From: a virus
Lineage: Duplodnaviria > Heunggongvirae > Uroviricota > Caudoviricetes
Virus record (IMG/VR): IMGVR_UViG_2534681759_000006
Length of the DNA: 41,553 nucleotides
Strand: one strand, 5' to 3'
The translations under genes were made by a program, and so were the position numbers. Below the pieces are notes generated by a model. It did not search any database. It saw only the letters and a program-made list of their open reading frames with translations, and was not told where the DNA came from. Positions 13,042 through 41,553 of the stretch are shown here, in pieces; the stretch's first letter is position 1; each line of letters opens with the position of its first letter.

Positions 13042-13048
13042 GGCTTAA
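13028..13048. other. bidirectional hairpin (TTAAGCCC ctgta GGGCTTAA) spanning the convergent stop codons of Q and the membrane-protein gene
   Basis: 8-bp perfect stem, 5-nt loop; no strong U-tract on either strand. Confidence 0.5.
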
Positions 13049-13629
13049 TAATTCATATGAATTCTGTTTCCGAGATAATATAATCCAAAGAAAGTTGATA
13101 CTAAGAGTTGCCAAACGAGGAAAGTAAATACAACAGTATAAACCATTAAAACAAAACTGTTTTGATAGACATTGATTAATGGTGAAAATATAGCATTAAG
13201 TATTATTATAACAATGCTTAATGCTGTTAAAAAAGAGAATAGCATGCAAAGAAATAATCGTCTGGTCAGAACCTCCTCTGAATTTACTACTTTTCCATTT
13301 TCTTTTGTTACTTTTATTTCAATAGAGGCATTTCTTTCATTGCTAATCAATGGTAAATCAATCTCAGCTCTATTGAAAGTTGCTATGGCGGCCAGAGCGG
13401 CAATATAAAACCCTGGTAGGTTAGAGATAAATGAAACGATTGATTTAATGAAACCATTGTCATCAAATAAATCTTTGACAGGGATTTTTAATAGAATGAA
13501 AAGTACTGCTGTGATAGAAGTAAGTAGAATTGGTGCTACCCAATCATATGCAGCTTTGCCGCTAATACCTTTAATAAAAAGATATCCAAACGGCTTGCCT
13601 AGATGAGAGAAAACTGAAAGTATTGGCAT
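13045..13629 (-). CDS. AT-rich predicted 4-TM membrane protein (194 aa), second gene of a two-gene antisense moron cassette
   Basis: Four hydrophobic helix-length segments by eye; start 8 nt after the upstream gene's stop; markedly AT-rich. Confidence 0.7.
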   Translation of the reverse strand: MPILSVFSHLGKPFGYLFIKGISGKAAYDWVAPILLTSITAVLFILLKIPVKDLFDDNGFIKSIVSFISNLPGFYIAALAAIATFNRAEIDLPLISNERNASIEIKVTKENGKVVNSEEVLTRRLFLCMLFSFLTALSIVIIILNAIFSPLINVYQNSFVLMVYTVVFTFLVWQLLVSTFFGLYYLGNRIHMNY

Positions 13630-13636
13630 AATAACC

Positions 13637-14659
13637 TCACATCAAATCTATCATTTTCACAACAAACTCTAGCTCAATTTTAACATATGAATCCTTCAGG
13701 CGCGAATTAAAGTTATCGATAATGCTTTTCTTAATAAATGTTTTTTCTAAATTATTAAGATTGATGTTTGAGGTTTTGAAATCAACCTGCCTTGGTTTAT
13801 TTGTTTCAGGATCTTGGAATTTAACCTTTAATTTATCATAACCACCATTCATTTTTTTATTGAAATGAGATGCTACATTTTTAATCCATCCAATAACATT
13901 GTCACCATGATTTGGAAGTAATTTTAATGTACTTTCAGTCGGAATGTAAGGTGAGTTAACATCAGGAGCATTAATTGTTCCGAATTGATCCTTGACTAAT
14001 ATGACATCTGATAATCCTTTTTGGCTTATTTTATTAAAAAGCTCCTTGTCTAACATTCCTGTAAATTCAAATATTGGTTTGTATCGTATTTTTACTTCTT
14101 TTTTTGATGTTGCAGAAATAACGTTAGTTGGATGTTTTGCGGTAAATAAGTCTTCATTGTCTTTCGCCACTTCAAAGAGAATTTTGTCTAAAAAACTATT
14201 TAACCGGGCCGTAGATACACCTGGGGTAGATGTACAAATCATATCATAGGTTCTTTTATTTCCATTTAATGATATGACAACATAGGTAGAAACTTCATAG
14301 CCTTCACCTTGTTCATATTTTGGTTGGATTTCAACGCGTTCATTAGTATTTATATTTTTTACAACGGTAGTACTTCCATTTTTATCAACACTATTAATAA
14401 GAAGGACAATATGCGTGGGTGAGTTATCTGGAAGTAAAGGATAAAGTTGTACATCTTGGAGAGTAACTACAATATTCCCAGAATCATATGAATGAACGAG
14501 TCCCTTTTGTTTAACAATCAATGGGGCAAGCATGTACATTTCCGGAACAGGACATATACACTGGGCTTTTACCTCTTGTGTTGCCTTGGTTCTAAACTTT
14601 GTGTCAATGGTCAGACTATGATGAGTAACGAGTCTTTCGCTAGCATTTAATTTTGCCAT
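13637..14659 (-). CDS. AT-rich soluble protein of unknown function (340 aa), first gene of the two-gene antisense moron cassette
   Basis: Long ORF with Lys/Asn-rich low-GC codon usage; no recognisable catalytic motif by eye. Confidence 0.7.
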   Translation of the reverse strand: MAKLNASERLVTHHSLTIDTKFRTKATQEVKAQCICPVPEMYMLAPLIVKQKGLVHSYDSGNIVVTLQDVQLYPLLPDNSPTHIVLLINSVDKNGSTTVVKNINTNERVEIQPKYEQGEGYEVSTYVVISLNGNKRTYDMICTSTPGVSTARLNSFLDKILFEVAKDNEDLFTAKHPTNVISATSKKEVKIRYKPIFEFTGMLDKELFNKISQKGLSDVILVKDQFGTINAPDVNSPYIPTESTLKLLPNHGDNVIGWIKNVASHFNKKMNGGYDKLKVKFQDPETNKPRQVDFKTSNINLNNLEKTFIKKSIIDNFNSRLKDSYVKIELEFVVKMIDLM

Positions 14660-14944: not shown

Positions 14945-15271
14945 ATGCCTCATAACCCAAATACCTGGCTGGAGTTGTTCCAGAGCTGGTGGCGTGGAGA
15001 CACACCGCTGGGCGCAGTGATTATGTCGATCGTTATGGCTGGCTTGCGCATTGCCTATTTTGGCGGTGGTGGTGGCTGGAAACGAAAAACGCTCGAGATT
15101 TTGCTCTGTGGTGCTCTGACGCTGACTTTTGCATCCGCTCTTGAGTATGTCGGATGGCCTAAATCTCTTTCTGTTGCCATTGGTGGCGGTGTTGGGCTGA
15201 TTGGTGTCGATGCAATTCGTGGGGCTGCAATGCGAGTAATCGGTAACAAATTTGGTAGCTCGAAGGAGTAA
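14945..15271 (+). CDS. lambda S-type holin (108 aa)
   Basis: Hydrophobic small protein; C-terminus resembles lambda S; first gene of lysis cassette. Confidence 0.8.
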   Translation: MPHNPNTWLELFQSWWRGDTPLGAVIMSIVMAGLRIAYFGGGGGWKRKTLEILLCGALTLTFASALEYVGWPKSLSVAIGGGVGLIGVDAIRGAAMRVIGNKFGSSKE

Positions 15272-15274
15272 TTT

Positions 15275-15751
15275 ATGCAGGCACTAAATTCCCAGCGTAA
15301 AGCTTTCCTGGATATGGTTGCATGGTCAGAAGGAACGGATAACGGGCGACAACCGACACGTAACCACGGTTATGATGTCATTGTCGGTGGTGAACTGTTT
15401 ACTGATTACTCCGATCATCCTCGCAAACTTGTCACGCTAAACCCGAAACTCAAATCAACAGCAGCCGGACGTTACCAGCTTCTTTCCCGTTGGTGGGATG
15501 CCTACCGCAAGCAGCTAGGGCTGAAAGACTTCTCTCCCAGAAGCCAGGACTCCGTGGCATTACAGCAGATTAAAGAGCGTGGCGCTTTACCGATGATTGA
15601 TCGCGGTGATATCCGTCAGGCAATCGACCGTTGCAGCAATATCTGGGCTTCACTGCCGGGCGCTGGTTATGGTCAGTATGAACATAAAATCGGTGACCTG
15701 ATTGCCAGGTTTAAAGAGGCTGGTGGGGTGGTAAATGAAGTTGAGCTATAA
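15275..15751 (+). CDS. endolysin, lambda R-type lytic transglycosylase
   Basis: Near-colinear with lambda R (QRKAFLDMVAWSEGTDNGRQ...HGYDVIVGGELFTDYSDHPRKLVTLNPKLKST). Confidence 0.9.
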   Translation: MQALNSQRKAFLDMVAWSEGTDNGRQPTRNHGYDVIVGGELFTDYSDHPRKLVTLNPKLKSTAAGRYQLLSRWWDAYRKQLGLKDFSPRSQDSVALQQIKERGALPMIDRGDIRQAIDRCSNIWASLPGAGYGQYEHKIGDLIARFKEAGGVVNEVEL

Positions 15752-16127
15752 GCTGATTATCGCTGCTTTCCTTTTAACTGTCGTCTGTTCTTTCATCTGG
15801 TCAACCAACCACTACTACAGCAAATATCAGCACGAAAAGAAACGTGCTGATGAGGCTGTACAAAATGCCAAATCGGCAACTGCCATTACTAATAACGTCC
15901 TGCAATCACTACAAATCGTCAATACAGTACTGGAGGCTAACCAGCATGCAAAACAGCAGATCGCACTGGAGTCACAGAGAACCCAGGCTGATATCAAAAT
16001 GGCTTTTGCGAATGATGATTGCGCTGCCCGTCCTGTTCCTGCTCGTGCAGCTGAACGGCTGCGCCGGTACGCGGACAGTTTACGTACCAGTTTCGGCGGT
16101 ACCACTACTAGCGAATCTGACCGCTGA
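15735..16127 (+). CDS. i-spanin (Rz-like)
   Basis: N-terminal TM anchor then charged coiled-coil-like region; follows endolysin. Confidence 0.7.
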   Translation: MKLSYKLIIAAFLLTVVCSFIWSTNHYYSKYQHEKKRADEAVQNAKSATAITNNVLQSLQIVNTVLEANQHAKQQIALESQRTQADIKMAFANDDCAARPVPARAAERLRRYADSLRTSFGGTTTSESDR

Positions 16128-16284
16128 AACTCCGCAACCAGCTATCCCCGACCCGCTGACATGGAGTGGGAGCCTGGATTTGAACGTAAGCCTGTTGTCG
16201 GCGCTGGCGTCTTGTAATAGGGATAAGTTAGACATTAGAAAGAGTGAGCACCTGCTTTCGGAGAAAAACTCTGCTGAAAAGTGA
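16012..16284 (+). CDS. o-spanin (Rz1-like lipoprotein) in +1 frame overlapping Rz 3' end
   Basis: Signal-like LPVLFLLVQLNGC with lipobox-like Cys, proline-rich body; overlapped spanin arrangement. Confidence 0.45.
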   Translation: MMIALPVLFLLVQLNGCAGTRTVYVPVSAVPLLANLTAETPQPAIPDPLTWSGSLDLNVSLLSALASCNRDKLDIRKSEHLLSEKNSAEK

Positions 16285-16392
16285 GGTTATATAGCTAGAT
16301 CGGAATTGGCGATTCATATATCGGAAATAGTTGGTTAAGAATTTTCTGGAATGATTGTATGCTTTTACAACCTATATCGAAGTTCATGTTGG

Positions 16393-17262
16393 ATGAATTT
16401 TATGCAAAACGTACAGCCGCTATCTCTGGTAACTACTTTAGTAATTTTGAGGTCTAATGGAGAGTCAAAGTCGTTAGGTACTGGGTTCTTTTATCAACAT
16501 AGCAATGGTTTCATTTTCCTTGCAACTAACTATCATGTAATAACTGGAATCAGCCCATCCGAAAGGGGTGTAAAGCCATTTATAGGCGATAGTATTGATA
16601 TTCAGCTGAGAGATAAAACCGGAAAACTATTCAAACATACGATGCCTCTGTTTAAAGATGGTTCACCGCTGTGGTTGGAGCACCCCACAGATAAAGAGGC
16701 AGACATTATCTTGATGCCTTTGCCTCAAGAGTTGTTTGTAAACACAGGAGTAAAAGTAGTCTCAAAAACAACGACACTGCCTAATGTCCAGATAAACCCC
16801 TCATCTCCTGTTGTAATGATTGGATATCCTCATGGTTATCATGACACGACTCACTACCTTCCAATATGGAAAACAGGAAGCTTAGCGAGTGAGCCAGATA
16901 TCGATTTCGATGGGAAGAAATTAATAGTTGTCGATATTTCTGCTTTCCCTGGAATGTCAGGCTCTCCGGCATTCTATGTCACGCACAGTGGTTATCTTAC
17001 AAAAGAAGGGAATATGATCATGGATATGGGAATGAAAATTCATTTCCTTGGCGTTTATGCAAGTATGCAAATGCTAAACAGTGATCTTTTCTTAGAACAA
17101 GTCGTTAGTGCTGCAGAATACAAAGTGTCGCATAGTGAATCTTTGCAACTAGGGCATGTCTGGAAAGCTGAGTTACTTGAAGAGATAGCTGCGACATCTA
17201 GTCCGATTGCAACCACACCATCTCAATTTCAAAGTAATAGCAAATTCTTATTTAAGTACTGA
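16393..17262 (+). CDS. trypsin-like (S1/chymotrypsin-fold) serine peptidase, AT-rich moron
   Basis: His region LATNYHVI, Ser region FPGMSGSPAF (GxSGSP); start chosen at internal Met (track ORF begins 16351). Confidence 0.6.
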   Translation: MNFMQNVQPLSLVTTLVILRSNGESKSLGTGFFYQHSNGFIFLATNYHVITGISPSERGVKPFIGDSIDIQLRDKTGKLFKHTMPLFKDGSPLWLEHPTDKEADIILMPLPQELFVNTGVKVVSKTTTLPNVQINPSSPVVMIGYPHGYHDTTHYLPIWKTGSLASEPDIDFDGKKLIVVDISAFPGMSGSPAFYVTHSGYLTKEGNMIMDMGMKIHFLGVYASMQMLNSDLFLEQVVSAAEYKVSHSESLQLGHVWKAELLEEIAATSSPIATTPSQFQSNSKFLFKY

Positions 17263-17337
17263 GATACGTCTACACATAAACCGCCTGTTGGAGGTTTTTA
17301 TGCATATCGTGCGAGCAGTATCAGAGAGAATATTTCA

Positions 17338-17688
17338 ATGCCACCACGAACACCAAAAGCCTGCCGTGTTCGCGGCTGCCGATCGACAACCACAGACCCG
17401 TCAGGTTATTGCAAGCAACACAAAGGCGAAGGCTGGAAGCAATACAAGCCAGGACAATCCCGTCATCAGCGCGGTTATGGTTCGAAGTGGGACGTTATCC
17501 GCGCGCGTGTGCTGAAGCGTGACAAAGGCCTGTGTCAGTTGTGTTTGCGTGCCGGTGTGGTGCGCGAGGCGAAAACCGTTGACCACATCATTCCTAAAGC
17601 GCATGGCGGCACTGATGCCGACCGTAATCTGCAGAGTCTGTGCTGGCCGTGTCATAAGGCGAAGACGGCCCGTGAACGGTTGAAGTGA
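17338..17688 (+). CDS. HNH endonuclease (packaging-associated)
   Basis: Cys pairs and DHIIPKAHGGTD...N...LC..CH HNH motif; immediately upstream of terminase small subunit. Confidence 0.8.
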   Translation: MPPRTPKACRVRGCRSTTTDPSGYCKQHKGEGWKQYKPGQSRHQRGYGSKWDVIRARVLKRDKGLCQLCLRAGVVREAKTVDHIIPKAHGGTDADRNLQSLCWPCHKAKTARERLK

Positions 17689-17714
17689 TAATAATTCTCA
17701 ACTGCTTGAGGGGA

Positions 17715-17775
17715 GGGGCGGGTCAAATCCCTGCGGCCTGACGTCTTCCGGACTGCCCGCCCCATCGTTTTTTTA
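17715..17775 (+). terminator. GC-rich hairpin (GGGGCGGG...CCCGCCCC) followed by T7 tract
   Basis: Read in sequence between HNH and terS. Confidence 0.45.
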
Positions 17776-17804
17776 TACCCGCGAAAAATGAAATTTAACC
17801 AGGA

Positions 17805-18308
17805 GTGCCGCATATGGCTGGAACGGCGGGGCGTTCCGGGCGTCGCCCCAAGCCAACGGCGCGCAAGGCGCTGGCCGGAAACCCCGGCAAGCGAGCCCTG
17901 AACAAAGATGAACCTGTTTTTACGCCCATCAAAGGTGTTGAGCCACCAGAGTGGTTCGCTGAAGAAGATCTCCCTCTCGCCACGATCATGTGGCAACTGA
18001 CAACCAAAGAACTCTGCGGTCAGGGCCTGCTGTGCGTGACTGACCTGGCGGTACTTGAGCGGTGGTGCGTGGCCTATGAGTTCTGGCGACGTGCCGTGAA
18101 AAATATTGCCATACAGGGCAACACCATCACCGGTGCAATGGGCGGCAGGGTCAAAAATCCGGAGCTGACCGCCAAAAAAGAACAGGAGTCCGAGATGAGC
18201 AGCACGGGGGCAATGCTCGGACTCGACCCCAGCAGCCGCCAGCGTCTGATTGGCCTGGCGGGGCAGAAGAAAGCCACTAACCCGTTTCTGAAAATTATCG
18301 AATCATGA
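17805..18308 (+). CDS. terminase small subunit (P27-family-like)
   Basis: Position upstream of large terminase with ATGA overlap; basic N-terminus. Confidence 0.65.
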
Positions 18309-20038
18309 GCCGGAAATCTTACCCCAACGTAAATGCTGCAAATCAGTATGCCCGGGATGTCGTGCGCGGAAAGATTGTTGCCTGCCAGTTTGTGATTCAG
18401 GCCTGCCAGCGCCATCTTGATGACCTGATGGCGGAAAAAAGTAAGTCGTTTCGTTACCGCTTCGACAAGGACCTGGCTGAACGGGCCGCGAAATTTATTC
18501 AGCTGTTGCCGCACACCAAGGGGGAGTGGGCATTCAAACGGATGCCCATCACGCTGGAGCCGTGGCAGCTATTTGTGATCTGCTGTGCGTTTGGCTGGGT
18601 CAATAAAGGCACCCGGTTGCGCCGCTTCCGGGAGGTGTACACCGAAATCCCCCGTAAGAACGGCAAATCAGCAATCTCTGCCGGTGTTGCCCTGTATTGT
18701 TTTGCCTGTGATAACGAGTTTGGCGCGGAAGTGTATTCCGGTGCCACGACAGAGAAACAGGCGTGGGAAGTCTTTCGCCCGGCGCGACTGATGTGTAAAC
18801 GCACACCCATGCTGACGGAAGCGTTCGGGATTGAGGTTAACGCCTCAAACATGAACCGTCCGGAGGATGGCGCGCGGTTTGAACCGCTGATCGGCAACCC
18901 AGGTGATGGTTCATCACCCCACTGTGCCGTGGTTGATGAATATCACGAGCATGCCACCGATGCGCTTTATACCACAATGCTTACCGGGATGGGGGCGCGA
19001 CGTCAGCCACTGATGTGGGCCATTACTACTGCCGGGTACAACATTGAGGGGCCGTGCTACGACAAACGGCGGGAAGTTATCGAGATGCTCAACGGTTCGG
19101 TACCCAACGATGAACTGTTCGGGATCATCTATACCGTTGACGAAGGTGACGACTGGACCAACCCACAGGTGCTGGAAAAAGCCAACCCGAATATCGGGGT
19201 GTCGGTTTACCGTGAGTTTTTGTTAAGTCAGCAACAGCGTGCGAAAAATAACGCCCGTCTGGCAAACGTCTTTAAAACAAAACACCTCAATATCTGGGTG
19301 TCGGCGCGTTCGGCGTATTTCAACCTGGTGAGCTGGCAGAGCTGCGAGGATAAATCACTGACTCTTGAGCAATTCGAGGGGCAGCCGTGCATTCTGGCCT
19401 TTGACCTGGCGCGTAAACTGGATATGAACAGCATGGCGCGACTTTATACCCGCGAGATTGACGGTAAAACGCATTACTACAGTGTGGCCCCGCGTTTCTG
19501 GGTACCGTATGACACGGTGTACAGCGTCGAGAAAAATGAAGATCGCCGGACAGCCGAACGCTTTCAGAAATGGGTGGAAATGGGCGTCCTGACCGTTACC
19601 GATGGTGCAGAGGTGGATTATCGCTACATCCTCGAAGAGGCCAAAGCGGCGAACAAAATCAGCCCGGTCAGCGAGTCACCCATCGACCCCTTCGGGGCGA
19701 CCGGGCTGTCACATGACCTTGCTGATGAAGACCTGAATCCCGTCACTATCTTCCAGAACTTCACCAATATGTCCGATCCGATGAAAGAGCTGGAAGCAGC
19801 GATTGAATCGGGACGTTTTCATCATGACGGCAATCCCATCATGACCTGGTGTATCGGCAACGTGGTCGGCAAAAACATGCCGGGTAACGATGATGTGGTG
19901 AAACCCGTCAAAGAGCAGGCGGAAAACAAAATTGACGGTGCAGTTGCGCTGATTATGGCGGTTGGAAGAGCCATGCTGTACGAGAAAGAAGACACGCTGT
20001 CTGATCACATTGAGTCCTACGGGATCCGCTCGCTTTAA
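18305..20038 (+). CDS. terminase large subunit (577 aa)
   Basis: Size, position and ATPase/nuclease-type organisation; precedes portal. Confidence 0.85.
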
Positions 20039-20232: not shown

Positions 20233-21473
20233 TGTTCTTTTCGGGATTATTTCAACGAAAAAGTGACGCACCGGTGACCACGCCAGCAGAGCTGGCGGAT
20301 GCTATCGGGCTGTCATACGACACCTATACCGGAAAGCAGATCAGCAGCCAGAGGGCCATGCGACTGACGGCGGTTTTTTCCTGCGTCAGGGTGCTGGCGG
20401 AGTCGGTCGGGATGTTGCCCTGCAACCTGTATCACCTGAACGGCAGCCTGAAGCAGAGAGCCACTGGCGAACGTCTGCATAAGCTGATCTCCACGCATCC
20501 CAATGGCTATATGACGCCGCAGGAGTTCTGGGAGCTGGTGGTCACCTGTCTGTGCCTGCGGGGAAACTTTTACGCCTACAAAGTGAAAGCATTTGGCGAA
20601 GTGGCTGAACTGCTGCCCGTCGATCCCGGCTGTGTGGTACCGAAGCTTAACAGTAGCTGGGAGCCGATCTATCAGGTCACATTCCCGGATGGCTCCACGG
20701 ATGTACTGAGCCAGGAGGATATCTGGCATGTGCGTACGCTGACGCTGGACGGACTGGTGGGGCTGAATCCCATCGCCTATGCCCGCGAGGCAATATCGCT
20801 GGCAGCTGCGACCGAAGAGCACGGGGCCAGACTGTTCAGCAATGGCGCGGTGACGTCGGGTGTGTTGCGTACAGAGCAGACGCTGTCAGATCAGGCTTAT
20901 GAGCGCCTGAAGAAAGATTTTGAGGAGCGTCACACCGGGCTTGGCAATGCTCACCGCCCGATGATCCTTGAGATGGGGCTGGACTGGAAGTCGATGGCGC
21001 TGAACGCCGAGGACAGCCAGTTCCTGGAAACCCGCAAGTTTCAGCTTGAAGAAATCTGTCGTCTGTTCCGTGTGCCATTGCACATGGTGCAGAACACCGA
21101 TCGTGCCACCTTCAACAATATCGAAGAACTGGGGCTGGGATTTATCAACTATTCACTGGTGCCGTATCTGACCCGCATTGAGCAGCGGATCAACACCGGA
21201 CTGGTACGAAAAAGTAAGCAGGGCGTTTATTACGCCAAATTTAACGCCGGGGCGTTACTGCGCGGGGATATGAAGTCCCGTTTTGAAGCCTACGCCACCG
21301 GGATTAACTGGGGAATTTACTCTCCCAATGACTGCCGCGACCTGGAAGATATGAATCCGCGTCCCGGTGGGGATGTCTATCTCACACCGATGAACATGAC
21401 CACGAAACCCTCCGATGGCAGTAAAGCCGGTAAGCAGAAGGATAACGCCAATGCAGACGAAACAACGTCTTGA
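20232..21473 (+). CDS. portal protein (HK97 family), GTG start
   Basis: GGAGGT SD then GTG; size and position after terminase. Confidence 0.8.
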   Translation: MFFSGLFQRKSDAPVTTPAELADAIGLSYDTYTGKQISSQRAMRLTAVFSCVRVLAESVGMLPCNLYHLNGSLKQRATGERLHKLISTHPNGYMTPQEFWELVVTCLCLRGNFYAYKVKAFGEVAELLPVDPGCVVPKLNSSWEPIYQVTFPDGSTDVLSQEDIWHVRTLTLDGLVGLNPIAYAREAISLAAATEEHGARLFSNGAVTSGVLRTEQTLSDQAYERLKKDFEERHTGLGNAHRPMILEMGLDWKSMALNAEDSQFLETRKFQLEEICRLFRVPLHMVQNTDRATFNNIEELGLGFINYSLVPYLTRIEQRINTGLVRKSKQGVYYAKFNAGALLRGDMKSRFEAYATGINWGIYSPNDCRDLEDMNPRPGGDVYLTPMNMTTKPSDGSKAGKQKDNANADETTS

Positions 21474-22101
21474 TGTACCGCTGAGTCTGAAATCTGTCAG
21501 TGACTCCGGTGAGTTTGAAGGGTATGGCTCCGTCTTTGGTGTAAAGGACAGCCACGATGATGTGGTGATGTCCGGGGCATTTGCTGCTTCCCTGCGGGCG
21601 TGGAGTGACAGAAAAGCGTTACCTGCGCTGCTCTGGCAGCACCGCATGGATGAACCCATCGGTGTTTACACTGAAATGAAGGAAGACGATGTCGGACTTT
21701 ACGTCAGGGGACGGTTGCTTATTGATGATGATCCCCTCGCAAAACGCGCACATGCACACATGAAGGCCGGTTCGTTAACCGGCCTTTCTATTGGGTACGT
21801 CCTGAAAGACTGGGAATACGACCGGAGCAAAGAAGCCTTTCTGTTGAAAGAAATCGACCTCTGGGAAGTCAGTCTGGTGACGTTTCCGTCTAACGACGAG
21901 GCGCGGATCAGCGACGTCAAGAACGCGCTGGCCCGCGGGGAAATCCCCGAACAGAAAAAAATCGAAAGAGTCCTGCGTGATGTCGGACTCTCCCGTACCC
22001 AGGCCAAAGCATTCATGGCCGGGGGCTATGGCGCACTGTCCCTGCGCGACGCTGAGGATGTGGGCTCTGCACTGAATGCACTGAAAAATCTGAACTTCTA
22101 A
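21451..22101 (+). CDS. prohead protease (HK97/S78 family)
   Basis: Position between portal and capsid; start taken at internal Met. Confidence 0.7.
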   Translation: MQTKQRLDVPLSLKSVSDSGEFEGYGSVFGVKDSHDDVVMSGAFAASLRAWSDRKALPALLWQHRMDEPIGVYTEMKEDDVGLYVRGRLLIDDDPLAKRAHAHMKAGSLTGLSIGYVLKDWEYDRSKEAFLLKEIDLWEVSLVTFPSNDEARISDVKNALARGEIPEQKKIERVLRDVGLSRTQAKAFMAGGYGALSLRDAEDVGSALNALKNLNF

Positions 22102-36895: not shown

Positions 36896-36965
36896 CCAAC
36901 GTTTATGAAAATGCAGAAATAACGAGCAAATGGCATCATTCCTGCTTTTGTCAGAGGGATCCACT

Positions 36966-37520
36966 ATGCTTATTGGCTATGTACGCGTATCAACAAATGA
37001 CCAGAACACCGATCTACAACGTAATGCGTTGAACTGTGCAGGATGTGAGCTGATGTTTGAAGACAAGATAAGCGGTACAAAGTCCGACAGACCAGGACTG
37101 AAAAAGCTGCTCAGGACACTATCGGCAGGTGACACGCTGGTGGTCTGGAAACTGGACCGACTGGGGCGCAGTATGCGGCATCTTGTCGTGCTGGTGGAGG
37201 AGTTGCGCGAACGAGGCATCAACTTTCGTAGTCTGACGGATTCAATTGATACCAGTACCCCAATGGGGCGCTTTTTCTTTCATGTGATGGGTGCCCTGGC
37301 TGAAATGGAGCGTGAACTGATTGTTGAACGAACAAAAGCTGGACTGGAAGCTGCTCGCGCACAGGGACGAATTGGTGGACGTCGTCCCAAACTTACACCA
37401 GAACAATGGGAGCAGGCCGGACGATTAATTGCATCAGGCGTTCCTCGCCAGAAGGTGGCGATCATCTATGATGTTGGTATATCGACACTGTATAAGAAGT
37501 TTCCGGTCGGAGATAAATGA
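36966..37520 (+). CDS. pin: serine DNA invertase (Pin/Gin/Hin family)
   Basis: N-terminal resolvase catalytic motif (LIGYVRVSTNDQNTDLQ), C-terminal HTH; adjacent to invertible segment. Confidence 0.9.
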   Translation: MLIGYVRVSTNDQNTDLQRNALNCAGCELMFEDKISGTKSDRPGLKKLLRTLSAGDTLVVWKLDRLGRSMRHLVVLVEELRERGINFRSLTDSIDTSTPMGRFFFHVMGALAEMERELIVERTKAGLEAARAQGRIGGRRPKLTPEQWEQAGRLIASGVPRQKVAIIYDVGISTLYKKFPVGDK

Positions 37521-37580: not shown

Positions 37581-38450
<870 letters not shown>

Positions 38451-38827: not shown

Positions 38828-39739
38828 ATGATTAACTTTACTGAAATTGATAGTGACGGTGAAGCCTGGGAGTCATTTGCCCGTGATTTTCTTGAAGAAC
38901 TTGGCTTTTATATTGAATCCGCGCCAGATAGAGGTGCAGATGGAGGTAAAGATCTTTTAATCACAGAGCAATTGCAAGGTCAGTTAAATAAATATAAATT
39001 TCGTTGGCTTGTTAGCTGTAAACATTATGCAACAAGTAAAAAATCAGTTTCAGAAAAGGATGAGATTAATATACAAGAACGTATTGATGGATTCAATGCC
39101 GACGGATTTATTGGATTTTACTCAACACTGCCAAGTAGTGGTTTAAATTCAAGAATGACGCAATTAAAAGAGAATGGAAAAATAAAGGACTTTCGATTCT
39201 TTGATGGTAAATTAATTGAAAATCACTTAGTCAGAATTGGTTACTCAAAACTACTCCTTAGATACTTTCCTGAGAGCTATAAAAAAATAAAACCCAAGCA
39301 TTTGATTTTTGATAAGTACTTACCTATAAAATGTGATCGTTGTGGAAAGGACTTAATAGAAAACCATCATGAAGAAAATTATGATGGCATTGTGTGCAAT
39401 GCAGAGATCATACACGATGACAAACCAAATGAGGTGATAGCGGTTTATTATGCGTGTAAAGGTGATTGTGATAAGCATTTTGAGGATTATTTTTGGAATG
39501 AATATAAAGCGATTACGAGATGGCAGGATATAAGTGATCTAGCCATCCCATTATTCTATCTCAAATGGATTATGGGGACATTTAATGAACTTGAGTATGG
39601 AAGGAAAACATATACCAAAGAAGCCTTCAATAAAACAAAGGAGATAACATTAGCGCTATCTCAAATTGTTATGAGAGAAATGACAGAAAAAGAAAGAGAA
39701 AGAGTGATGGCTTTGAATTCACTACCTGATTACATATAA
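38828..39739 (+). CDS. Mrr-like PD-(D/E)xK restriction-endonuclease-fold protein with Cys-rich C-terminal domain (303 aa), very AT-rich
   Basis: N-terminal pattern FARDFLEELGF...DRGADGGKDLL...VSCKHY resembles the Mrr catalytic domain; C-terminal CDRCGKD...C...CKGDC. Confidence 0.5.
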   Translation: MINFTEIDSDGEAWESFARDFLEELGFYIESAPDRGADGGKDLLITEQLQGQLNKYKFRWLVSCKHYATSKKSVSEKDEINIQERIDGFNADGFIGFYSTLPSSGLNSRMTQLKENGKIKDFRFFDGKLIENHLVRIGYSKLLLRYFPESYKKIKPKHLIFDKYLPIKCDRCGKDLIENHHEENYDGIVCNAEIIHDDKPNEVIAVYYACKGDCDKHFEDYFWNEYKAITRWQDISDLAIPLFYLKWIMGTFNELEYGRKTYTKEAFNKTKEITLALSQIVMREMTEKERERVMALNSLPDYI

Positions 39740-39910
39740 ATTATATTTACTAACATTTGAACTAGCGCATCTTTGGTGCAGAGACACCACCATCTTGGGG
39801 ACACTGTGAGGCCACTGGCTTCCCAACTTATCGTTATACAGGATAATAAGGTGCTCCAGGGTGGCTATGAACTTGATGTTACGTCTGCGATTTGCTCATA
39901 AGGGACAACC

Positions 39911-39947
39911 ATACTCAAATCTCCCACATTGCAGGAGATTTGAGTAT
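39911..39947. promoter_or_regulatory. perfect 14-bp palindrome ATACTCAAATCTCC-N8-GGAGATTTGAGTAT overlapping the SD and start codon of the recombinase gene
   Basis: Read directly; the right arm contains GGAG and ends in the ATG. Confidence 0.8.
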
Positions 39948-40548
39948 GAACACGTCACCGTGGAACAAAGACCGTATCATCGGCCAAAAAAGACCACTTC
40001 AGATATCTCATATCTGGGGGATCCGAATCCGGCTTGAACTGGAAGGTAAAACGCGCGATTTAGCTCAGTTCGATATGGTCCTGGACAGTAAGCTACGAGG
40101 CTGTGATCTGGTCAAACTCAAAGTATCTGATGTTGCATATGGTAGCTCTGCTTCAAGCAGAGCTACGGTGCTGCAACAGAAAACCGGTAGCCCTGTGCAG
40201 TTTGAGATAACCAAAGGGACAAGAGAAGCTGTTGCTGCATTGATAATGCTTGGCAATTTGCATAGTAAAGACTTCTTGTTTCGGTTTCTGGTCGGAACTA
40301 ATCAGCTCATATCTACCCGGCAATACAACCGAATTTTTCATGGGTGGGTAGAAAAGCTTGGTCTCGAAGATTCGCTTTACAGCACTCATTCCATGAGAAG
40401 AACAAAACCTTACCTGATCTACAAGAAAACCAAGAATCTTCGGGTGATCCAACTTCTGTTGGGCCATAAGAAACTGGAAAGCACAGTCCGTTATCTGGGT
40501 ATTGAAGTAGATGATGTGTTAGAGATCTCTGAATCGATTGAAGTCTAA
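39946..40548 (+). CDS. small tyrosine recombinase, catalytic domain only (about 200 aa; FimB/FimE-like size)
   Basis: Catalytic motifs LRGCDLVKLKVSDV (box I), HSMRRT (H-x-x-R), LLGHKKLESTVRYLG (H..Y); no N-terminal core-binding domain. Confidence 0.7.
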   Translation: MNTSPWNKDRIIGQKRPLQISHIWGIRIRLELEGKTRDLAQFDMVLDSKLRGCDLVKLKVSDVAYGSSASSRATVLQQKTGSPVQFEITKGTREAVAALIMLGNLHSKDFLFRFLVGTNQLISTRQYNRIFHGWVEKLGLEDSLYSTHSMRRTKPYLIYKKTKNLRVIQLLLGHKKLESTVRYLGIEVDDVLEISESIEV

Positions 40549-40585
40549 GGTTGTCAGGGCTGCAACAACAGCCCTGTGCCAGGAG

Positions 40586-40614
40586 TTGACACTGTTAGCA
40601 TCGCGCTATGTTAA
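40586..40614 (+). promoter_or_regulatory. candidate sigma70 promoter (TTGACA, then a TG-containing -10 region) upstream of the last gene
   Basis: Consensus -35 hexamer read in sequence 17 bp upstream of TGTTAA; preceded by hairpin CAGGGCTG caacaa CAGCCCTG. Confidence 0.4.
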
Positions 40615-40680
40615 TCTATGTTGAGCAGTTAAAAATGATAATGTAGTTTATATGGATAATCAGTTTATAGAGTGGGTGAG

Positions 40681-41553
40681 ATGGAACTAGATGAAACACT
40701 TGAAGTTATCAAAAATAATTTTAGTAATAATCAGAAGAAACTATTTAAAAGGATTGAGCCAGCCACTAACCGTCAAGTAGCTATCGGTCTTATTAGTTTA
40801 CAAGGAGTGGAAAAAACATCTCAGGCTGAGATAGAGGTAATTGCCGGCCTCATATCTCAGTTTAGTCCATTGGAAATCGATAGTTTTCAAAATTCACCAC
40901 GACGAATAACTCTGAAAGGTCAATTCCCAAACGGACATATTGTTTATATCGAGCCTCAGTATAAGGTTGGCAATATAAACCCAAAAGCCCAGCCTTGGGC
41001 AATAGACCTTGTCCTTAGACTAAATAGATGGATTGGTCAAGATTTGGTTGAGATTGCTGCTATTGGCATCGAGTATGATGGCCACATAGCTCATTATGTG
41101 GAAAGTAAAATTAAGTCTACTTACAAGCGTGATGCAGTAATAACTAGTAACGAAGGATTTCAATCGATTAGGATCTCACCAGAACAATGGAAATCGTCTA
41201 AAGAGGATCTTAAGAAGGCAATTAAAAAGTATTTTGAACATCACATAAAAAAAATTGAAAAAGTTCAACTAAGCACAATAAACGCCCAAAATTTCAACAA
41301 TTTTATTTATGAAAATGAAAATGAAGTGATATCCACTGTAACTTGCCCTTTATGTAATGGAAAAGGCAGTTTAGCGGGAGAAGATTGTCCGATCTGTAAT
41401 GGAATGGGATCCGTAAAAAGATATATTGCTGCAAAGGTGAATCTTTCTAATTATGAAAAATTCACTTGTCCTGACTGCAGGAATATAAAATTAGATTGCA
41501 GAACCTGCAATGGTGAAGGATCAATTAGCAGAGAAAAAGCATTAGAAATGTAA
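40681..41553 (+). CDS. AT-rich protein with C-terminal DnaJ-type zinc-finger repeats (CxxCxGxG) and a possible PD-(D/E)xK/DUF559-like N-terminal domain
   Basis: C-terminal CPLCNGKGS, CPICNGMGS, CPDC, CRTCNGEGS; N-terminal IDLVL...IEYDGHIAH resembles the DUF559/Vsr-like motif (tentative). Confidence 0.6.
   Translation: MELDETLEVIKNNFSNNQKKLFKRIEPATNRQVAIGLISLQGVEKTSQAEIEVIAGLISQFSPLEIDSFQNSPRRITLKGQFPNGHIVYIEPQYKVGNINPKAQPWAIDLVLRLNRWIGQDLVEIAAIGIEYDGHIAHYVESKIKSTYKRDAVITSNEGFQSIRISPEQWKSSKEDLKKAIKKYFEHHIKKIEKVQLSTINAQNFNNFIYENENEVISTVTCPLCNGKGSLAGEDCPICNGMGSVKRYIAAKVNLSNYEKFTCPDCRNIKLDCRTCNGEGSISREKALEM

Follow-up and report, generated by a model that had tools for sequence, protein, structure and literature searches.

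The 41,553-nucleotide stretch of DNA analysed here (the window) was identified by sequence comparison as an SfII/SfV-type lambdoid prophage. Positions 15000-18500 are 99.9% identical to Shigella phage SfII, and positions 14945-20038 are 100% identical to a prophage in E. coli TW10828. The lysis cassette occupies the plus strand and comprises S (14945-15271), R (15275-15751) and Rz (15735-16127), with Rz1 embedded and ending at 16284. It is followed by an AT-rich spacer of 117 bp (16285-16401, plus strand, 32.5% GC) and then by a single plus-strand gene (16402-17262) encoding a 286-residue protein, which is a PDZ-less, HtrA-like S1 serine protease belonging to PDC-S45 and PHROG 7688. The HNH endonuclease gene (17338-17688) begins 75 bp past the protease gene and is followed by the small (terS, 17805-18308) and large (terL, 18305-20038) terminase subunit genes, all on the plus strand.

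The protease open reading frame contains in-frame ATG codons at 16351, 16393 and 16402 and ends with a TGA stop at 17260-17262. The preliminary description had given the reading frame correctly and had placed its start at 16393, which is three codons early and immaterial to what follows. The alignments of eleven homologous loci, the PHROG profile and the PGAP annotation all begin at MQNV, which corresponds to the ATG at 16402, and the start is best placed there on this comparative basis. Neither 16393 nor 16351 (the longest ORF) is supported by the alignment of homologues.

Both of the segments first read as chymotrypsin-fold catalytic motifs, LATNYHVI and FPGMSGSPAF, are found in the ORF, and the Pfam comparison proposed at that stage places the protein above the Trypsin_2 (PF13365) cut-off (34.9 bits versus 27.6 bits, E 3.2e-8). 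Counting from the start at 16402, the catalytic residues are His45 in a TNYHV motif (codon 16534-16536), Asp101 in an EADI motif (codon 16702-16704) and Ser186 in a PGMSGSP motif (codon 16957-16959). All three are invariant in a 31-sequence alignment whose members are 40-73% identical to the window protein, and they are among 51 invariant columns that also include the PGMSGSP motif. The AlphaFold2 model (pLDDT 83, pTM 0.81) contains a double β-barrel fold, in which residues 211-264 provide the rest of the second barrel and a C-terminal helix. Together, these data identify the protein as a chymotrypsin-fold (PA-clan/S1) serine protease with an intact His-Asp-Ser triad that is predicted to be catalytically competent. 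A sequence search of the PDB with the protease gave marginal matches alone (E at least 0.019), to exfoliative toxins and Spl proteases. A role as the prohead maturation protease was rejected, as the preliminary description had anticipated: the Peptidase_S78 protein (E 1.2e-31) is encoded by a different gene at 21415-22101, and the protease ORF lies outside the head module.

The closest folds to the model are those of the envelope HtrA proteases (HtrA/DegS), and identity to the HtrA/Deg group (MEROPS S1C: DegS, DegQ/DegP and plant Deg1/2/9) is 16-20%. Unlike those enzymes, the window protease has no signal peptide, no membrane anchor and no PDZ domain (no PDZ match from Pfam in the 286 residues), and it is accessory rather than core housekeeping. 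It differs further in the last barrel β-hairpin, which is lengthened (residues 211-255) and leads into the C-terminal helix, and in an added C-terminal tail. The tail, of approximately 22 residues (17194-17259, plus strand; alignment columns 301-344), is modelled with pLDDT below 50. It is variable in sequence, yet its C-terminus is conserved as hydrophobic-x-[K/R/G]-[F/Y], and within the 31-sequence alignment it is present in enterobacterial prophage copies and absent from environmental homologues. Such a tail could be an auto-inhibitory or targeting element. Per-site variability concentrates in residues 51-82, 105-135 and 201-214, in the hairpin tip and in the tail, a pattern that would be expected of any family and that was not used as evidence.

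The preliminary description had seen no obvious signal peptide and had named a secreted, DegP/HtrA-type housekeeping enzyme as the identity that would contradict its reading. Indeed, no signal peptide is present in the protease: the protein starts at the first core strand and has no basic n-region, its N-terminal segment is confidently folded in the model (pLDDT 80-95), and S8, T11 and L16 are invariant in the 31-sequence alignment. It is because this segment is both conserved and part of the modelled fold that a signal peptide can be discounted. The fold is HtrA-like, but with no export signal or PDZ domain, with identity of no more than 22% and with a gene found in only 3 of 5426 genomes, hence outside the core genome, the protein was rejected as a DegP/HtrA housekeeping protease. 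Relatives are not uniform in this respect. An N-terminal extension resembling a Sec signal or membrane anchor is present in 28 of the 174 relatives examined (∼ 16%), and in the signal-bearing proteins the segment homologous to the window protease N-terminus comes after the signal peptide. All the enterobacterial prophage copies examined are free of such an extension. For a compact protease family to be divided between compartments in this way is unusual.

The protein belongs to a family that has already been catalogued as a bioinformatic candidate. Residues 1-268 match positions 11-282 of the 293-position PADLOC PDC-S45 profile (E 4.2e-41), and the full-length protein matches PHROG 7688 (E 7.5e-112), for which the function is given as unknown. 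The PGAP/RefSeq product name is 'S1 family peptidase', and no NCBIfam model matches. In length (full-length correspondence at ∼ 285 residues) and in being a single gene with no conserved partner, the window protease resembles the PDC-S45/PHROG 7688 family and shows no structural difference from it. A word-indexed search returned 285 homologues, and an exhaustive profile search returned 314 clusters (at 50% identity) at E ≤ 1e-30 and 4351 at E ≤ 1e-10; among the best 150 clusters, nearly all proteins are single-domain and of 250-330 residues. A literature search found no functional study of PDC-S45 or PHROG 7688, with one paper simply listing PDC-S45 in Sinorhizobium prophages, and none for Trypsin_2 in defence or for proteases in prophage hotspots.

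The gene stands out from its surroundings in base composition, as had been noted from the letters alone. Its GC content is 40.0% (GC3 35.9%), compared with 47.8% for Rz, 57.0% for the HNH gene and 58.7% for terS, whose GC3 values are 47-65%. The allele is present in 3 of 5426 complete E. coli genomes, each time inside a prophage, and a sister allele (50% identical) is likewise present in 3 of 5426, with a truncated copy in one genome. When 50,697 isolated phage genomes were searched by tblastn, the gene was not found in 50,695; the two matching records are both of SfII, and in both the gene is disrupted. A 1249-bp IS element (IS911 ORF A/B according to RefSeq) divides the SfII copy at the position corresponding to 16563/16564 of the window. 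SfII has been induced, plated and host-ranged and is therefore an infectious phage (PMC3772137). That it is infectious despite the split gene indicates that the protease is dispensable for both lytic growth and lysogeny. As judged from composition and distribution, the protease gene is compositionally foreign, horizontally acquired and optional cargo.

The IS insertion in SfII, the truncated copy of the sister allele and the sporadic distribution are what would be expected of a functionless or decaying passenger gene in a recombination hotspot. We consider this explanation improbable: 51 positions including the triad have remained invariant at 40-73% identity, several genomes and viral contigs share an identical, intact ORF, and the family is both large and conserved in length.

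Next, the interval between Rz1 and the HNH gene was compared among related prophages, a comparison of neighbourhoods that had been suggested at the outset. The slot is essentially empty in SfV and in vB_EcoM-720R4, carries an ORF of 168 residues in vB_EcoM-689R6, and in three other E. coli prophages holds, respectively, two minus-strand ORFs, DUF6979 with KilA-N, and DUF2441. The sister allele, which is also a PDC-S45 member, sits in the identical slot of further prophages. In E. coli O91 RM7190 the slot contains the 2TM and 1TM components (E 5.5e-57 and 7e-79; locus positions 898-2770) of the 2TM/1TM-TIR system, which has been validated and was described from the P2 hotspot (Rousset et al. 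2022; PMC9122126). The 750 bp upstream of 2TM/1TM contain no ORF as long as 60 residues, and thus no TIR gene, and the RM7190 copy may be incomplete, its TIR gene missing or decayed. From these comparisons, the Rz1-HNH junction of SfV/SfII-type prophages behaves as a variable cargo hotspot.

The window prophage carries further genes of this kind. A gene at 37581-38405 (minus strand) is a full-length match to PD-T4-3 (PADLOC E 2.8e-140; Pfam LEM-3-like GIY-YIG), an experimentally validated single-gene system, and lies just past a Pin-like invertase gene (36930-37520) at the tail-fibre end of the prophage. Two genes of 32% GC at 13045-14659 (minus strand) match PDC-M53B (E 2.8e-54) and PDC-M53A (E 1.9e-32), correspond to PHROGs 8257 and 9879 (function unknown), and are located between the Q antiterminator and holin S genes. 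Sister prophages hold an NA37 protein and a 406-residue ORF in the Q-S slot instead of PDC-M53, and for this reason the slot can be regarded as a second cargo hotspot. On the strength of these profile matches, the window prophage is rich in predicted defence cargo (PD-T4-3, PDC-M53A/B). A low-GC stretch past the PD-T4-3 gene (38828-41553) may represent a second small island abutting the prophage. It contains a Mrr_cat-like nuclease gene (38828-39739), a short ORF of the integrase family (39892-40548) and an ORF that runs from 40672 off the window end, with a DnaJ-type CXXCXGXG zinc finger and a weak PDC-M01B match.

The protease gene is co-oriented with the Q-dependent late operon, and a consensus scan found neither a consensus σ70 promoter nor an intrinsic terminator flanking it. 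The hairpin downstream of the gene scores no better than shuffled sequence (z = 0.63). A promoter-like pair that falls below the threshold of the consensus scan is present in the upstream spacer, consisting of TTAAGA (16335-16340), a 17-nt gap and TATGCT (16358-16363), and a weak GGA Shine-Dalgarno sequence precedes the ATG at 16402. The TATGCT hexamer lies 38 nt upstream of this ATG and is kept at 38-41 nt in loci encoding 66-69%-identical proteases, in spacers that have otherwise diverged; from this conservation we infer that TATGCT/TTAAGA may function as a promoter. Given that consensus promoter and terminator signals are lacking, transcription may be mainly Q-dependent and late. The proposal that the gene is a moron is therefore upheld in part: presence or absence among related prophages and deviant composition mark it as an optional insert, but a promoter and terminator of its own are not established, the scan having found none and the conserved -10-like hexamer being the sole candidate. 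In phage λ the moron bor, at the Rz-cos junction, encodes a lipoprotein, is AT-rich and is transcribed from the opposite strand by its own promoter. The window gene resembles bor-type morons in its lambdoid position, in the variable content of that position and in its AT-rich composition, but differs from bor in being co-oriented with the late operon and in having no clear promoter or terminator.

This arrangement raises the main alternative, that the protease is a late-expressed lysis or release accessory. Transcribed with S, R and Rz/Rz1 from the Q-antiterminated late promoter, it would depend on holin lesions for access to the envelope or medium, like a signal-less endolysin, and would cleave envelope or surface proteins, aiding lysis or blocking re-adsorption of progeny to debris. 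The lack of a consensus promoter or terminator between the gene and the late operon is consistent with such a role, as are the closest folds being envelope HtrA proteases and the Sec signals of some relatives, which suggest an extracytoplasmic class of substrate. Moreover, homologues of at least 50% identity on viral contigs, where the upstream side is visible, are all found directly after the lysis cassette and its spanin genes and on the same strand, and this placement spans several unrelated holin/endolysin/spanin sets and several terminase types. However, the gene can be dispensed with, as the empty slot of SfV and the infectivity of SfII with its IS-split copy show; it is rare (3 of 5426 genomes), and the slot also takes non-lysis cargo, including defence components. 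In IMG/VR, other enterobacterial prophages have at their lysis-terminase junction a second, more distant subfamily (26-33% identity) whose proteins end in HPYPPI and whose genes in several loci are oriented against the late operon, so that co-transcription with the lysis genes is not a general requirement. With non-phage homologues also present in defence-type islands, as described below, an accessory role in lysis is judged unlikely.

Late-operon position bears equally on the suggestion that the protein is an anti-defence or host-takeover protease that degrades a host immune or stress protein during the phage's own lytic growth. The intact triad, the absence of an export signal and the occurrence of the gene on phages, with variation between related ones, would all suit this function. 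Counter-defence genes are usually early, however, and this one comes behind the lysis genes, at the far end of the late operon; it is because of this position that the suggestion is disfavoured. It is further weakened by the absence of the gene from 50,695 of the 50,697 isolated phage genomes, with the two SfII records disrupted, and by the presence of the family in bacterial defence-type islands that contain no phage genes. We regard it as very improbable.

Clustering of neighbour ORFs at 89 loci revealed no partner gene that travels with the protease across lineages, and the gene is thus solitary, as first described. Several distant homologues are nevertheless found in company that is suggestive. 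At a Nitrospira locus the protease homologue is accompanied by a 211-residue ORF and by genes for a TIR and an HNH protein, and a caspase-TPR gene is close by. On Desulfobulbus and metagenome contigs it is followed by a DUF3644 gene, which is PDC-S19 (E 2.4e-136), and then by an ORF of 181-189 residues, an order kept on three contigs, two of which have a transposase near; a methyltransferase gene is also nearby. The pairing with PDC-S19 may constitute a small mobile defence module. A Bacteroidetes homologue, which has a signal peptide, lies among ParE/Phd pairs, DUF2726 and a methyltransferase gene followed by a 765-residue gene, and a membrane-anchored homologue on another contig is near a methyltransferase gene and its upstream neighbour. 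A block of Acidobacteria homologues (34-39% identity) keeps the same chromosomal neighbours, an RND pump, an ECF sigma factor and a Ser/Thr kinase, and has no defence genes around it. The pump, sigma factor and kinase were rejected as partners, as the arrangement looks like lineage synteny.

The occurrence of homologues in free-living Nitrospira, in Desulfobulbus and in soil Acidobacteria also argues against a lysogenic-conversion or virulence factor acting on an animal host or on competitors. Such a factor might be sought in AT-rich cargo of a prophage family that is the Shigella serotype-converting group. The principal objection is that the protein has no signal peptide or recognisable secretion signal, and it is on this ground that lysogenic conversion is disfavoured; both alleles, moreover, are rare, with just 3 of the 5426 complete E. 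coli genomes carrying each. This is the least probable of the explanations weighed here.

Thus, of the three roles put forward in the preliminary description, anti-defence and lysogenic conversion lose ground and defence is favoured, because of the PDC-S45 match, the content of the hotspot and the defence-island context of homologues. The reading that we prefer, while placing it slightly short of an even chance, is that the protease is a prophage-borne, single-gene anti-phage factor (for superinfection exclusion or abortive infection) that acts by proteolysis. It would be expressed in the lysogen, and putative cytoplasmic cleavage of a phage protein or of an essential host protein would stop the infecting phage. 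Candidate elements for specificity or auto-inhibition are the hypervariable loops, the hairpin tip and the C-terminal tail.

Several observations are consistent with a defence function. The match to PDC-S45 is full-length, and a second PDC-S45 allele occupies the identical slot elsewhere; the RM7190 slot holds 2TM/1TM, and the same window prophage carries PD-T4-3 and PDC-M53A/B. Distant homologues lie beside TIR, caspase-TPR, PDC-S19, toxin-antitoxin (ParE/Phd) and methyltransferase genes. In addition, there are weak PADLOC matches to protease effector modules, both for the window protease (LmuA, E 2.4e-3) and for the sister allele (LmuA, 6.6e-8; RT-Protease_XI, 2e-7).

Other features fit a defence function less well. 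The gene has late-operon orientation and no consensus promoter or terminator, and its expression in the lysogen is something that we infer. On viral contigs, the consistent position of the homologues of at least 50% identity behind a lysis cassette might be a sign of function and not of a hotspot. A cytoplasmic location does not hold for the whole family, given that ∼ 16% of it is signal-peptide-like, and the Acidobacteria homologues sit in chromosomal synteny with no defence genes. Finally, there is neither a sensor domain nor a partner gene to account for a trigger.

A more far-reaching form of the defence reading addresses the trigger directly. A sensor-less, single-domain, cytoplasmic HtrA-like protease might by itself be a complete anti-phage system, in which the variable loops would recognise the invader, the aromatic C-terminus would serve as an auto-inhibitory pseudo-product to be displaced by a phage protein, and lambdoid prophages would have a dedicated hotspot for defence at their spanin-terminase junction. 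Taken as a whole, this proposal is speculative and rather doubtful.

The nearest functional parallel to the proposed defence role is Lit of prophage e14, a zinc metalloprotease whose cleavage of EF-Tu depends on the T4 Gol peptide. The likeness is one of analogy: a prophage-borne, single-gene cytoplasmic protease that is known, in the case of Lit, and proposed, in the present case, to block a superinfecting phage. There is no sequence or fold relationship between the two. A Trypsin_2-type domain like that of the window protease is shared by the LmuA-protease of Lamassu, the RT-protease of type XI retrons, the proteases of gasdermin and CARD-NLR systems and the trypsin-MBL protein of Hachiman. 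Those systems are multi-gene, and their sensors and effectors are joined to the protease by fusion or act as its partners, whereas the window protease stands alone.

Overall, if PDC-S45 protects against phage it would be among the smallest protease-only defence systems, and the way in which a protease on its own distinguishes infected from uninfected cells could be studied in a simple model. Were the more far-reaching proposal of a self-contained, loop-guided enzyme also true, the strategy of Lit would have arisen anew on the scaffold of a serine protease. For PDC-S45 the window offers a convenient natural test, since it carries an intact copy and SfII provides a natural IS knockout, and the Rz1-HNH junction of SfV/SfII-type prophages could be mined for more defence genes.
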